A stretch of DNA of 62,860 bases, filler included, from Basidiobolus ranarum (taxonomy: Eukaryota): NCBI GenBank assembly GCA_040143965.1. It is 53 parts of 53 records of this genome, joined end to end, with 100 filler letters (N's around TTAATTAATTAA, not from the genome) between each part and the next. Parts side by side here need not be neighbours in the genome. Positions count along the whole stretch, not along the records: positions 4,773 to 5,864 come from JASJQH010013351.1; positions 5,965 to 7,056 come from JASJQH010013352.1; 51 more parts are not named here. One strand, given 5' to 3'. This document shows, one piece after another, positions 4,071 to 14,204 of the stretch (position 1 is the first letter of the stretch; every line of letters begins with the position of its first letter). Position numbers and translations under genes: made by a program. The notes beneath the pieces were generated by a model that saw only the letters and a program-made list of their open reading frames with translations, was not told where the DNA came from and did no database searches.

Positions 4071-4672
4071 TCATCCTAACTTATATCTTAATTCTTCAAA
4101 TTTTGGTGTGGGTAATGGTTTGGTAAGGATGTCAGAAATGATGTCCTCAGTTGGACAGTACTCTAGTTGGACATTCTTATTCACAATAACTTCCCTGACA
4201 AAGTGATGTTGAATGTCCATGTGCTTAATTCTAGCATGAAATTTAGGATTTTTGGCTAAAGAAATACAACTTTGATTATCCTTGAAAATTATGATGGGTG
4301 AACTTTGAAAAATGCCCAAGTCTTTGAACAGTTTCCTTAGCAACATAGCCTCCTTTGTTGTATGTCATGCTGCCATGTTCTCTGCTTCAGTTGTTGTAAG
4401 TGCTACAGTGGGTTGTTTCTTGCTATTACTAGATATGGCTCCTTCACTACAGAGAAAGGTATATGCAGTGATAGATCTTTTGTCTTCAATATCACATCCC
4501 CAATCTGCATAACTAAACCCAATTAGATTCTTATTCTCATAAGAATATGTATATTGTAATCCCAGTTCAATTGTCCCCTTCAAATATCTGAAAATTATCT
4601 TAACTGCTGCATAATGTTCAGATCCTGGGGTTTGCACATCTTAGCTGACTACTCCCACTGCAAAAGAGATAT
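4071..4672 (-). mobile_element. Ty1/Copia RT C-terminus and RNase H, frameshifted
   Basis: [44 protein letters not shown]. Confidence 0.95.
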
Positions 4673-5966
4673 NNNNNNNNNNNNNNNNNNNNNNNNNNNN
4701 NNNNNNNNNNNNNNNNTTAATTAATTAANNNNNNNNNNNNNNNNNNNNNNNNNNNNNNNNNNNNNNNNNNNNATTAGCAATTAGGTTTTGTTGCATATTG
4801 GCACTTGTGCCCCATAGCTATTTGTAATTTGGTGAAATGTTAGATTTATTGCATAAATTATTCAATATTAAGACTTTATTTTGCCAATAGAATACAACTA
4901 ATAGAAGGATCTAAAAAGGGTAACAAATTGAATTGTAAACAGCAAGAACAGTACTGTCACAAAGTTAGCAAACTGCCATAATTAAGCTTGAAATATTCAC
5001 AGCTTTTGAAACAATCTGAATTACTTTGATTAGACTAACATTGGGCACTTTTCACAAAATAATGAAGCAATTAATTTGAGGAATGGTGATTTTGCTATTA
5101 GAGTTGTTGAGATCTTGCCAAAAAAGAGGCTCAAGTATACAATGAAGTTCAATCATATAATTTTCCCAATTGATTCAAAACTCCAAAGTCCCAGCTAAGG
5201 TAGTACCAGTTTTTTCAATTGTCACATATTCTCAGCCCTTGCTAAAAAATTAGATAAGTTTAATTGCTAGGTTCTAATTATGCTCTCATATAGACTTTTA
5301 CTTGGTTAATTTGCTTCTCTCTCTCTGTCCCTCCCAATTGTTCTCATTGCTTAACAAATGTTATTCATTAACATTTTCACTTCTTCAACACTTCTTTTTT
5401 TTTCACATCAAGTGATGCTTTTTAGCTGAATTAAAAAACAACAATTTCTATTAAGATCCTTAGTACTATTATATTATAATGTTTCTGTTTGAAATTACTT
5501 CTGTTCTACCTCAAGAGTATCATATTATTGCATCAAGGTCTTGACACTTAAACGTTGAGATTTAGTTCTTTGCTTCATTCAGTTTGCTGACTGACTTCAT
5601 CCACTGACACTTGTTTCTGTCAACAGTTTTCATGGATTAACACTTCTTATTTATTAGCACTCTTTATATATTAACAACTTTGTTATTTGAAACTTTTTAT
5701 CTTTGATTGTTTTGTTCTATTATCAATATTCATGTACTGATAAGTTTGATGTGATGACACTTAATTCATTAACATAGTTTAACCTTCAACAACTTGTTTC
5801 TACTAATGATTTGAGTCTATTGAAACTGCTTACCTATTCACCCTTTTGATCCATTAGCACTTTCNNNNNNNNNNNNNNNNNNNNNNNNNNNNNNNNNNNN
5901 NNNNNNNNTTAATTAATTAANNNNNNNNNNNNNNNNNNNNNNNNNNNNNNNNNNNNNNNNNNNNCT

Positions 5967-6518
5967 ACCTTATACAACAGCGAAATTGTCACCAAATCTG
6001 TTTTAAATCATATCCTAAAAAAATTAACTTCCAAACAAGGCGTAGAGTTTGTTTCTAACCTCCAAAAAATCTGCATTAGATATTTACATTGGAAAGGTTT
6101 GTCCACAATATCAAAAGAATGCCATTCTCCAGCTACGGGCCTCAAAAGTATGGTATCCTCAGGAGCCAAAGGAAACAACTTGAACCTCACCCAAATTAGC
6201 CAACAACTAGGACAACAATACATGTACGGTGAACCTGTTAAATGCCAACTCCCCTACAAATATTTCAACGACCTTGACAACCAATTACAAAATGGATACA
6301 TAAATTCTTCTTACGTCAAAGGATTAAATCCATACGAGTTTTTTGTTCACCAAATGGCAGCCAGAGAAGGAATTGTTAATACTGGTGTTAGTACCGCATC
6401 TACAGGATATCTCAACCGAAGAGCTTGCAAACTTATGGGAGACGTAAAAGTTATGTACAACAACACTATTGGCACAGATAATTGCACCATTAGAATTTTG
6501 AATGATGACTTTTTGTAA
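5967..6518 (+). CDS. Virus-like DNA-directed RNA polymerase largest subunit (RPB1/beta-prime-like), C-terminal part; 5' end cut by the contig edge
   Basis: Frame is open from the contig edge: ..LQKICIRYLHWKGLST..MVSSGAKGNNLNLTQISQQLGQQ..GYINSSYVKGLNPYEFFVHQMAAREGIVNTGVSTASTGYLNRR..KVMYNNT, matching the RPB1 F region and bridge helix; no introns; too divergent for cellular Pol I, II or III. Confidence 0.9.
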   Translation, partial: TLYNSEIVTKSVLNHILKKLTSKQGVEFVSNLQKICIRYLHWKGLSTISKECHSPATGLKSMVSSGAKGNNLNLTQISQQLGQQYMYGEPVKCQLPYKYFNDLDNQLQNGYINSSYVKGLNPYEFFVHQMAAREGIVNTGVSTASTGYLNRRACKLMGDVKVMYNNTIGTDNCTIRILNDDFL

Positions 6519-6653
6519 ACTTATTTATTTTTTTAAAACCCATACGTGTCATAAAAAATATTTTAACAACGTCGATTCCTAAAACAAACATAATATTTTT
6601 TTCAAACGAAGATACTCTTGCACGAAAAATTTGTCTACACAAAAAATACAAAC

Positions 6654-7056
6654 ATGAGAGATCCCTACGAAGTATTAGATAGTATGTTAGTATGCAGAGG
6701 ATATAAAAAAGATCCGTCTACATTAATGTACGTTAAGGATAACAAGTCTTTACCAATTTATCATGATATTAACCAAGACCCGTTGGATGTTCTCCAATTT
6801 ATAAAAGACTGTACCGATCCAGACTTTATTTTACTTATCTTGAGTATACCCATGACAAAAAAAAACATAGATAAGTTTAATTCGAACTTAGATTTAAAAT
6901 ATTATGACAAAGTATTTTTCATGGATGAGATTTTAGACGATCCTACAACTAATCCACTGGTTCCTGTACACAGGCTAGCTACCAAAGAAGAATTGGACTA
7001 TTTACAACAAAAGCACATACTTACGAGTACATTGCCAAAATTATTAACCACTGATA
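6654..7056 (+). CDS. RPB5-like RNA polymerase subunit, 3' truncated
   Basis: N-terminal MLVCRGY (compare RPB5 MxxDRGY) and C-terminal NPLVPVHRLATKEELDYLQQKHILTSTLPKLLTTD (compare HELVPKH..LPRIQ.xD); ATG at 6654 preferred over TTG at 6618. Confidence 0.8.
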
Positions 7057-7156
7057 NNNNNNNNNNNNNNNNNNNNNNNNNNNNNNNNNNNNNNNNNNNN
7101 TTAATTAATTAANNNNNNNNNNNNNNNNNNNNNNNNNNNNNNNNNNNNNNNNNNNN

Positions 7157-13321: not shown

Positions 13322-14204
13322 CTAAATAGTCATATAAATTAATCCTAATAAAGGTCTAAATTTCTCAAATTTCTGTATAGCTAATGGCTTGGTTAGTATA
13401 TCAGCAATCATGTCTTCGGTAGAACAATAATTTAAGTCAATAAACTTATTCTCTATAGTCTCTATAATGAAGTGATGCTTAATATCTATATGTTTGCTTC
13501 GATTATGAAATGTGGGATTTTTAGCTAATTTGATACAACTTTGATGATCTTGAAATATTGAAGTTGGTGTGTTTTGAGAATAACCCAAATCTGTTAAGAG
13601 TTTTCTTAGCCATATTGCTTCTTTTGTTGCTTCACAGGCAGCCATGTATTCAGCTTCTGTTGTGGAAGGTGCTACAGTAGGTTGTTTCTTTGAATTCCAA
13701 GAAATAGCTCCATTATAGCAAAGAAATAAGTATCCTGTTGTAGATCTCCTGTCTTCAATATCTCTTCCCCAATTTGCATCTGAATATCCCATCAGATCAA
13801 AGTTTGATCCAGAATATGTGTATTTTAAGCATAGATCCACAGTACCTTTCAAATATCTGAAAATCCGCTTAACTGCTATGATTTGATCAGATCCATAATT
13901 TTGAAGATATTGGCACATAACTCCCACAGAATATGCAATATCTGGCCGTGTTCCAACCATGATATACATCAAACTACCAACCATAGATTGATAAGGAAAT
14001 TTCTGGCTTTCATTTGAATCCAAGAATGTCTGATTTGAGCCATTTTTGGTCAAGTTAAGATTTGTCTCCATTGGGGTAGATACTGGATTACATTCTTCCA
14101 TTTTAAACTTCTTTAGTATATCTAGGATATACTTAGACTGGTTTAAAGTTATTGTTTTGGTAGTTCTATCTATCTTAATTTGGATTCCAAGATAGTATGT
14201 TGTA
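13322..14204 (-). mobile_element. Ty1/Copia RT C-terminus and RNase H (family C), open frame
   Basis: [58 protein letters not shown]. Confidence 0.95.

Follow-up and report, generated by a model that had tools for sequence, protein, structure and literature searches.

Two partial genes on an unplaced contig

The window examined here, a stretch of 62,860 nucleotides from the Basidiobolus ranarum assembly GCA_040143965.1, consists of 53 small contigs ordered by length and separated by 52 identical 100-bp linkers. The sequence under study is the whole of the sixth of these contigs, an unplaced piece of 1,092 bp (positions 5965–7056, plus strand, 33.4% GC). It is bounded by artificial, strandless linkers at 5865–5964 (N44 + TTAATTAATTAA + N44, joining unrelated contigs) and at 7057–7156 (100 bp). 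Because the contigs are joined only by such linkers, those on either side provide no context for the genes described below, and there is a practical lesson in this: in pseudo-scaffolds of unplaced contigs, gene neighbours are uninformative on linkage. Base composition is also neutral on the question of a foreign origin, since the GC content of the contig lies within ~1 SD of that of the other contigs (mean of the 53, 36.4%; SD 2.8). An earlier note had placed these genes inside a fungal assembly, which is correct insofar as the contig belongs to the same assembly file; isolated between artificial linkers as it is, the description can be carried no further than that.

The same note described two intron-less, co-oriented ORFs lying 135 bp apart with a T-run after the first stop, and this is indeed the arrangement seen; both ORFs are intact, with the ends of the contig cutting both genes such that ORF1 loses its 5' end and ORF2 its 3' end. 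ORF1 (5967–6518, plus strand) reads open from the very start of the contig and runs for 183 codons to a TAA stop. It represents the last part of an RPB1-type gene of the split kind termed RP1n. The RPB1 motifs previously attributed to this ORF can all be located on the plus strand, namely SGAKG (6159–6173), GQQ (6210–6218), GYINSSYVKGLNPYEFF (6294–6344), and the bridge helix HQMAAREG...KLMGD (6348–6443), with the stop codon following ~24 codons past the bridge helix. Consistent with this assignment, ORF1 matches the Pfam domains Rpb1_5 (E 6.7e-17) and Rpb1_4 (E 5e-9), along with a weak match to Rpb1_3 that falls under the cut-off (E 0.01). Its best PDB match is to residues 745–863 of S. pombe RPB1 (E 1.8e-23). 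Scored against PDB sequences, the ORF1 product (hereafter P0001) gives 86.7 bits with cellular RPB1, its best match, as compared with 72.8 for archaeal Rpo1N, 45.4 for African swine fever virus (ASFV) RPB1, and 31.9 for the vaccinia subunit.

The intergenic spacer (6519–6653, plus strand, 135 bp) has a GC content of 24.4%, carries a T7 run at 6528–6534, and presumably serves as a terminator and promoter region. Two candidate signals were considered and set aside. The octamer AAATATTT occurs five times in the whole window, once in the spacer (at 6556) and once in ORF1, and TTTTTNT is frequent on both strands; in a single spacer of 24%-GC DNA, neither stands out from chance as a promoter or terminator motif.

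ORF2 (6654–7056, plus strand) comprises 134 codons from its ATG, amounting to between two-thirds and three-quarters of a compact RPB5-type gene counted from the 5' end. An N-terminal domain is followed by the beginning of Rpb5_C, with LVPVHRLATKEEL at 6957–6995 (plus strand). Taken alone, its product P0002 scores only 13.2 bits against Pfam PF01191 Rpb5_C (cut-off 23.5, E 0.08), the domain being cut by the contig end. A three-sequence profile built from P0002 and two metagenomic relatives, on the other hand, returns RPB5 or RpoH for 20 of 20 PDB matches, with a best E of 2.6e-11. The ten nearest relatives, 123–182 aa in length, all match Rpb5_C (nine of them above the cut-off), and P0002 also matches the RPB5 genes of two metagenomic loci discussed below, L010 (1e-9) and L008 (3e-5). 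A word-index search for relatives of the RPB5 protein gave P0002 itself and nothing else; with an exhaustive profile search, 1,455 were obtained at E ≤ 0.001.

Structural comparison leads to the same assignment. Both domains of the AlphaFold model of P0002 (pLDDT 87.7) align to RPB5 chains. Foldseek places RPB5 at all of ranks 1–25, albeit with a best E of only 7.5e-3, and in VIA-align rows 1–27 are all RPB5 (Z 5.8–7.0), with 123–131 of the 134 residues aligned and the N-terminal domain aligning to residues 8–186 of eukaryotic RPB5. The earlier identification of the second ORF as an RPB5-type gene is thus borne out by the profile, by the domain matches of its relatives, and by the fold.

The compact RP1n family and its gene neighbourhoods

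P0001 belongs to a family of compact RP1n proteins of ~550–700 aa, the members of which all end at the position where ORF1 ends; for 9 of 9 aligned members, the C-terminus lies within a few residues of the ORF1 end. Its best RP1n relatives are P0003 (149 bits, 52% identity) and P0004 (140 bits). Over the RPB1 fragment, identity to uncultured giant-virus relatives from soil and freshwater (P0003–P0088) ranges from 34 to 57%. P0001 and P0004 both keep a longer loop ahead of the GYINSSY block that most relatives have lost.

One must ask whether these could simply be cellular RNA polymerase (RNAP) genes, belonging to the host or to some reduced eukaryote, a microsporidian or protist for example, present as a contaminant. 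That the best PDB matches are to Pol II RPB1 and to RPB5 would be in keeping with such an origin. Yet the RPB1 gene stops just past the bridge helix, exactly as the compact family does, and the top 86 database matches to the fragment, drawn from proteins of 322–2000 aa, are all 446–934 aa long, with none of cellular RPB1 length. Furthermore, the RPB5 gene begins a mere 135 bp downstream of the RPB1 piece and is itself compact, as are its nearest relatives, and the gene contexts of the family are viral. We consider a cellular origin highly improbable.

The contexts in question come from metagenomic contigs of 24–52 kb, with database listings of up to 199 kb. Locus L001 encodes an 891-aa RPB2, a DUF5757 protein, a 610-aa RP1n, a ResIII/SNF2 helicase, and a MutS+HNH protein. 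In L010 one finds the end of RPB2, a DUF5757 protein, a DEAD helicase, a capping enzyme, a 142-aa RPB5, and RP1n, with RPB5 lying 34 bp upstream of RP1n. L008 features RP1n, a dUTPase, RPB5, and the small subunit of ribonucleotide reductase (RNR), and L002 carries PCNA together with a RING protein. By local HMM search, RPB5 lies near RP1n in 2 of 11 loci (L010 and L008), and gene order varies, running RP1n to RPB5 in the window and RPB5 to RP1n in L010. Among 39 ORFs scanned on parts of L001, L002, L008, and L010, none belongs to a capsid or A32 family. Two ORFs that follow RP1n, one of 327 aa in L010 and one of 837 aa in L001, were considered as candidates for the complementary RP1c subunit and rejected, having no Pfam or PDB match. 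The earlier view of these genes as virus-like rather than cellular in type is sustained by the shared end point of the compact, split RP1n and by the company that its relatives keep: RPB2, capping enzyme, helicases, MutS-HNH, PCNA, RNR, and RPB5.

Virus-like could also mean a cytoplasmic linear plasmid or virus-like element of the pGKL type with its own reduced RNAP, an alternative that the earlier note had raised. The genes here are compact, AT-rich, intron-less, and closely spaced, as such an element would have them, and clear capsid and packaging genes are reportedly missing from the lineage's elements in moss and fungi (PMC4083422; PMC7017919). The pGKL RNAP, however, is described in the accessible part of its source as a non-canonical enzyme of two subunits, akin to poxviral RNAP (PMC6211774), whereas P0001 scores 31.9 bits to vaccinia rpo147, used here as a proxy for the pGKL sequence, versus 149 within its own family. 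In addition, the length of the relatives' contigs and their complement of MutS, RNR, PCNA, and dUTPase genes exceed plasmid content. The pGKL-like alternative finds no support, and we regard it as very improbable.

A further rival source is an archaeal contaminant, for example a DPANN archaeon. Such a source has some appeal, as archaeal rpoA is split at the same A'/A'' position (the 880-aa Rpo1N aligns up to residue 839), Archaea encode RpoH, and the ESM Atlas lists only archaeal hypothetical clusters for P0002; at 0.82–0.83 these fall under the 0.9 line, and we have counted them as no evidence. A tree of 39 rows, chosen from ~330 proteins and rooted on four archaeal A' sequences, splits every compact RP1n row from the Archaea with an SH-aLRT of 100. 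The earlier note had named branching within a cellular lineage, the archaeal included, as the result that would speak against a viral origin; archaeal A' is separate in these trees, which comprise neither eukaryotic Pol I/II/III nor named NCLDV (nucleocytoplasmic large DNA virus) sequences. Against an archaeal source, too, are the scores of a family profile (P0003+P0004+P0001), ~215 bits to archaeal A' versus 460 to a fungal copy, and a scan of 185,579 prokaryote genomes that, within the limits of its search patterns, yields no relatives. Moreover, P0002 possesses an N-terminal domain, whereas the solved archaeal subunit H chains matched by the profile have a length of only 77–84 aa, and an mRNA capping enzyme adjoins the relatives in L010. 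An archaeal contaminant is thus so improbable that we give it essentially no weight.

The fungal copy just mentioned is B. ranarum KAK9680029.1, which ranks fifth in the profile search; a second fungal protein, KAG0201760.1 of Mortierella sp. GBA30, scores 237 bits and lies inside the compact RP1n clade. In the 39-row tree, of which P0001 fills 26% of the columns, P0001, KAK9680029.1, P0003, and P0004 form a clade with an SH-aLRT of 99. The model of KAK9680029.1 ends in ...TLYNSEIA and ORF1 of the window begins with TLYNSEIV, identical at 7 of 8 positions. As the overlap amounts to just these 8 residues, and given the 26% column fill, the kinship between P0001 and the B. ranarum protein is indirect, established by way of P0003 and P0004. 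In a tree of 91 rows restricted to the C-terminal portion, P0001, P0003, and P0004 lie in a polytomy; all that this tree shows of them is that they fall outside a clade of 71 rows (SH-aLRT 95).

A probable unplaced insert copy, or a replicating element

A gene set of this kind has been described before. In the moss Physcomitrella patens, NCLDV-like regions encode the largest subunit of RNAP as two genes, RP1n and RP1c, divided at an archaeal-like position, and these multi-copy regions also carry RPB5, RPB2, TFIIS, a capping methyltransferase, and an SNF2 helicase, according to the available portion of that study (Maumus et al. 2014, PMC4083422). Endogenous NCLDV-like elements named "fundsalphavirus" were subsequently reported (Gong, Zhang & Han 2020, PMC7017919) from 14 early-diverging fungi, among them two species each of Basidiobolus and Mortierella. 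Their shared genes include RP1n, RP1c, RPB2, and RPB5, as well as DNAP, D5, an SNF2 helicase, and a SAM methyltransferase; they show an affinity to Pithovirus in DNAP trees, and some DNAP copies contain stops and frameshifts (PMC7017919). The suggestion that the contig stems from an undescribed virus must accordingly be given up, as the combination of split RP1n/RP1c, RPB5, and RPB2 already appears in these two papers, as far as their available text goes. The contig is genuine, yet no new kind of thing; its lineage is known from early-diverging fungi and moss.

We conclude with considerable confidence that the contig derives from an NCLDV-like element of this published split-RNAP lineage; most likely it is one copy of an insert that short-read assembly failed to place. 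Several points count against this reading. The 1,092-bp contig is joined physically to no host gene and to no further viral gene; none of the 37 ORFs of at least 100 aa on the other 52 contigs of the window belongs to a viral family, and a tblastn search of the window with 263 ORFs from related loci matches only contig 5965–7056. The differing gene order, the presence of RPB5 near RP1n in just 2 of 11 loci, the lack of capsid and A32 families among the 39 ORFs scanned on parts of the related loci, and the C-terminal polytomy weigh on the same side. The 53 contigs are a tiny sample of the whole assembly.

The same viral lineage might instead be represented by something other than an insert, whether a free or episomal replicating virus of the sequenced organism or a contaminating virus or infected organism. 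Several observations are what one would expect of this. The ORFs are intact over 183 and 134 codons, and of the 42 columns conserved to 90% or more across 90 relatives, P0001 retains 39, its three changes being conservative, as compared with 25 of 38 for the decayed Mortierella copy; judged by its sequence, the window RP1n copy looks undecayed. The contig bears no host sequence within its 1,092 bp. Relatives are common in soil metagenomes, and active giant viruses have now been documented in zoosporic fungi, as stated in the accessible text of PMC13533422. A virus replicating at useful depth, however, would normally give rise to long contigs and not to a 1.1-kb orphan, and a sister viral contig is absent from the window, tiny sample of the assembly though it is. 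The contig break coincides with the end of the B. ranarum model, which may reflect a branch point between diverged copies, and the fungal and moss elements on record are integrated and occur in multiple copies, so far as the available text of those reports shows (PMC4083422; PMC7017919). On balance, we consider a non-inserted source unlikely.

A more specific version of this proposal would have the RP1n–RPB5 pair come from a still-replicating giant-virus relative, an episome or a reactivatable provirus, with a non-zoosporic early-diverging fungus as host, possibly a Basidiobolus-like one. Such a relative might be capsid-poor, persisting as an intracellular element. We hold this to be quite doubtful, but if true, live giant-virus infection would reach further than the zoosporic fungi in which it is documented. 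At stake is the biology of the lineage, namely whether virions exist, how far the host range extends, and whether the copies are active.

Returning to the proposed NCLDV-like insert, the function of the encoded proteins in a parental virus may be sketched from known subunit roles. An RP1n of ~600 aa would hold the clamp, active site, funnel, and bridge helix, ending just after the last of these, and would be partnered by a separate RP1c, by RPB2, and by a compact, two-domain RPB5. RP1n would thereby supply the catalytic cleft as far as the bridge helix, and RPB5 would form the lower jaw that touches downstream DNA. Together with the capping enzyme and helicases, such an RNAP could render viral transcription independent of host Pol II. 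A polymerase so miniaturized and split (RP1n ~600 aa; RPB5 ~125–180 aa) bears on how a minimal eukaryote-type RNAP might be defined, although it has already been published and a 1.1-kb fragment adds little in this regard. What the contig does contribute is one more, apparently undecayed, copy to the giant-virus-like lineage of early-diverging fungi and moss.

Comparison with known systems

Other giant-virus DNA in fungal genomes provides a useful contrast. The Mycodnaviridae of zoosporic fungi (Myers et al. 2026, PMC13533422) resemble the present case in this general respect, but the available text of that account does not contain the term "RNA polymerase," and the hallmark genes it lists include none. 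The 1.5-Mb insert in Rhizophagus irregularis (PMC10640383) is likewise giant-virus DNA in a fungal genome, but is Asfarviridae-like, and the match of P0001 to ASFV RPB1 reaches only 45.4 bits.

The archaeal RpoA'/RpoA'' and RpoH system presents an identical split position and a homologue of RPB5 in RpoH. It differs in the length of its largest-subunit fragment (~870–910 aa, versus ~600 aa for RP1n of the present family), in falling into a separate clade, and in its RpoH, as P0002 bears an N-terminal domain. Gene order differs as well: the archaeal operon reads rpoH-rpoB-rpoA'-rpoA'', whereas in the window RP1n is followed by RPB5 and not by A''.

Closer likenesses are found among the uncultured RP1n proteins of soil and freshwater (L001, L010, and L008), which share the same end point and, in L010 and L008, have RPB5 nearby. 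The Physcomitrella regions, too, have a split largest subunit with RPB5 in the vicinity, a likeness drawn from the available description and not from sequence, and differ in having a moss host. With fundsalphavirus the contig compares in several respects: an RP1n that ends just past the bridge helix, an RPB5 on the same contig, and a clade shared, by way of P0003 and P0004, with a B. ranarum protein. The differences are that the window copy looks undecayed and that it spans only 1,092 bp, on which DNAP, D5, SNF2, the methyltransferase, RPB2, and RP1c do not occur, matched here to the published description of the gene set and not to the published sequences.

The RPB1/RPB5 contig and its neighbours

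The window (1-62860) is a pseudo-scaffold of 53 contigs arranged in falling length order, from 1,093 down to 1,083 bp, with 52 identical 100-bp linkers between them, each N44 + TTAATTAATTAA + N44. Because these linkers are artificial, so is any gene neighbourhood read across one of them, and no physical linkage follows. The stretch 5965-7056, for which the earlier note proposed an undescribed large DNA virus or cytoplasmic virus-like element, is exactly the sixth contig, of 1,092 bp. Its GC content, 33.4%, differs from that of the others (36.4%, SD 2.8) by about one SD.

The other 52 contigs are ordinary eukaryotic material. Among the 37 ORFs of at least 100 aa scanned on them, five match copia-type RVT_2, other matches are to integrase, gag, one Ribosomal_S7, and NRPS Condensation and AMP-binding domains, and no viral hallmark family is found; in a tblastn search of the window with 263 ORFs from related viral loci, the sole contig matched was 5965-7056. 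Ty1/copia retrotransposon fragments are numerous on several contigs (e.g., 4071-4637 and 13325-14203), as would be expected of a collection of repeat contigs left unplaced. The contig at 51127-52209 (minus strand) is one 361-aa open frame from end to end, with the highest GC in the window (45%); with domains tallied over the ORF set and not per ORF, it is probably the one that bears the NRPS Condensation and AMP-binding domains.

Identity of the two reading frames

ORF1 (5967-6518, plus strand) is open from the first bases of the contig and encodes 183 residues (P0001) followed by a TAA stop. It matches Pfam Rpb1_5 (E 6.7e-17) and Rpb1_4 (E 5e-9), and among solved structures 119 RNAP large subunits, the top match being residues 745-863 of S. 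pombe RPB1 (86.7 bits). The RPB1 motifs quoted earlier are all found in it, as is the bridge helix (6348-6443, plus strand), with the TAA some 24 codons further on. The coordinates also confirm two co-oriented ORFs with a T-run after the first stop: the spacer is 135 bp long, has 24.4% GC and contains a T7 run ten bases past the stop. At 6228-6290 (P0001 residues 88-108), a longer loop lies between GQQ and the GYINSSY block; it is kept in the window protein, in the near relative P0004 and in cellular RPB1, but is deleted in most compact relatives. The palindromic octamer AAATATTT, which we take to resemble a marseillevirus promoter motif, occurs at 6556-6563 and 6258-6265; the 58-kb window has five in all. 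From one of the two copies on this contig it is 98 bp downstream to the RPB5 start, and the counts are too few for a statistical test.

ORF2 (6654-7056, plus strand) begins with ATG and runs for 134 residues (P0002) to the contig end. Alone it scores 13.2 bits against Pfam Rpb5_C, below the threshold of 23.5. P0002 does match the RPB5 genes of two related loci, and a profile of these three sequences retrieves RPB5/RpoH in 20 of 20 PDB matches (best E 2.6e-11). An exhaustive profile search yields 1,455 relatives; the ten nearest all match Rpb5_C, and nine pass its cut-off. The AlphaFold model (pLDDT 87.7) aligns over nearly its full length with the RPB5 chains of Pol I-V and ASFV; RPB5 fills ranks 1-25 in Foldseek, where the best E is only 7.5e-3, and rows 1-27 in VIA-align, at Z 5.8-7.0, middling by that tool's scale. 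The identification as RPB5 made in the earlier note thus holds on sequence relatives and profile, nearest-relative Pfam matches and predicted fold. As the alignment spans RPB5 residues 8-186, ORF2 has the N-terminal domain, unlike the solved archaeal subunit H chains matched by the profile, which have only 77-84 aa and lack it.

A compact RP1n family and its fungal members

A search for relatives of the RPB1 fragment, restricted to database entries 322-2000 aa long, gave 86 matches. Every one measured 446-934 aa, mostly 550-700 aa, with Rpb1 domains 1-5, and none was of cellular RPB1 length. The C-termini of these RP1n proteins (RP1n and RP1c being the N- and C-terminal genes of a split largest subunit) line up with the ORF1 stop, which is therefore a family-wide gene boundary and not damage. 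Their gene contexts are viral. A 51.7-kb IMG/VR contig (L001) carries compact RPB2, a DUF5757 protein, RP1n, a ResIII/SNF2 helicase and a MutS-HNH protein; a 24-kb soil contig (L010) carries RPB2, a DUF5757 protein, a DEAD helicase, an mRNA capping enzyme, RPB5 and RP1n, with 34 bp from the RPB5 end to the RP1n start. L008 has RP1n, dUTPase, RPB5 and an RNR small subunit, and L002 has PCNA and a RING protein. None of 185,579 prokaryotic genomes scanned yielded a relative, within the limits of the scan patterns. The observation of an RPB1/RPB5 module is real, and its viral reading is right, borne out by the compact family, the shared end and the viral contexts.

On L001, 6 kb separate the compact RNAP genes from the MutS with C-terminal HNH domain (L001:18140-20893, minus strand), a domain pairing typical of mimivirus-like giant viruses. 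For the ORFs directly after RP1n (L010:11938-12921, plus strand, 327 aa; L001:12066-14579, minus strand, 837 aa), Pfam and the PDB gave no match, and no RP1c half was seen in the parts of these loci examined.

A search profile built from P0001 and its closest relatives, P0003 and P0004, brought up two entries from fungal genome annotations, KAG0201760.1 (P0311, Mortierella sp. GBA30) and, at rank 5 with 460 bits, KAK9680029.1 (P0249, Basidiobolus ranarum), which spans only the N-terminal 447 aa of RP1n. In a tree of 39 rows, selected by the analyst from about 330 proteins and rooted on four archaeal A' subunits, P0001 groups with P0249, P0003 and P0004 in one clade (SH-aLRT 99); it occupies 26% of the columns, and its overlap with P0249 is only eight residues. 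Archaea separate from all compact RP1n rows (SH-aLRT 100), which answers the phylogenetic check proposed earlier for archaeal A' only. A tree of just the C-terminal region (91 rows) places P0001, P0003 and P0004 in a polytomy.

P0249 ends in TLYNSEIA, and the window ORF (5967-5990) begins with TLYNSEIV at the same homologous position; two assemblies or copies thus break at the same point of RP1n. This junction hints at the kind of host, and perhaps at a tendency of assemblies to break there, as the presence of several diverged copies would predict. Most likely the contig is an insert copy that stayed unplaced in the assembly, though it may instead come from a free virus or contaminant.

Of 42 columns with at least 90% conservation across 90 relatives, P0001 retains 39, and its three changes are conservative. 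Internal stops are absent from both ORFs. The copy is thus recent, or remained under selection until not long ago. Unlike it, P0311 is a decayed copy, keeping 25 of 38 conserved positions with many bridge-helix residues lost; it is 90% identical to P0268, a 677-aa NCBI protein on a 54-kb contig. The undecayed copy may be compatible with a virus that is still active, or was until recently, in a non-zoosporic fungus, and this state is the only feature able to raise an otherwise modest interest.

Comparison with described elements

From known subunit roles, RP1n in the parent virus would supply the clamp, catalytic site and bridge helix, RP1c the trigger loop and jaw, RPB2 the second half of the cleft, and RPB5 the lower jaw on downstream DNA; with capping enzyme and helicases, such a polymerase could transcribe independently of host Pol II.

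A pGKL-type element is unsupported: its polymerase has two subunits and resembles that of poxviruses (PMC6211774), and the score of vaccinia rpo147 against the fragment is 31.9 bits. The Mycodnaviridae of zoosporic fungi are a different lineage, in the description of which RNA polymerase is not mentioned (PMC13533422); so is the Asfarviridae-like Rhizophagus insert, ASFV RPB1 scoring only 45.4 bits.

The claim that the element is undescribed does not survive, since the same split-RP1 gene set is already published. In the NCLDV-like regions of Physcomitrella, RP1n and RP1c are distinct genes under selection, a division called "analogous to" that of Archaea, and they occur along with RPB2, RPB5, TFIIS, a capping methyltransferase, SNF2 helicase, D5 and DNAP (Maumus et al. 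2014, PMC4083422). Endogenous "fundsalphavirus" elements are known from 14 early-diverging fungi that span six phyla, two Basidiobolus and two Mortierella species among them; they have D5, SNF2 helicase, SAM methyltransferase, RPB2, RPB5, RP1n and RP1c in common, their gene order is not conserved, and the moss elements fall within their diversity (Gong, Zhang & Han 2020, PMC7017919). As far as 1,092 bp can show, the window contig agrees with this description in every feature, and is an additional example of these split-RP1 elements.
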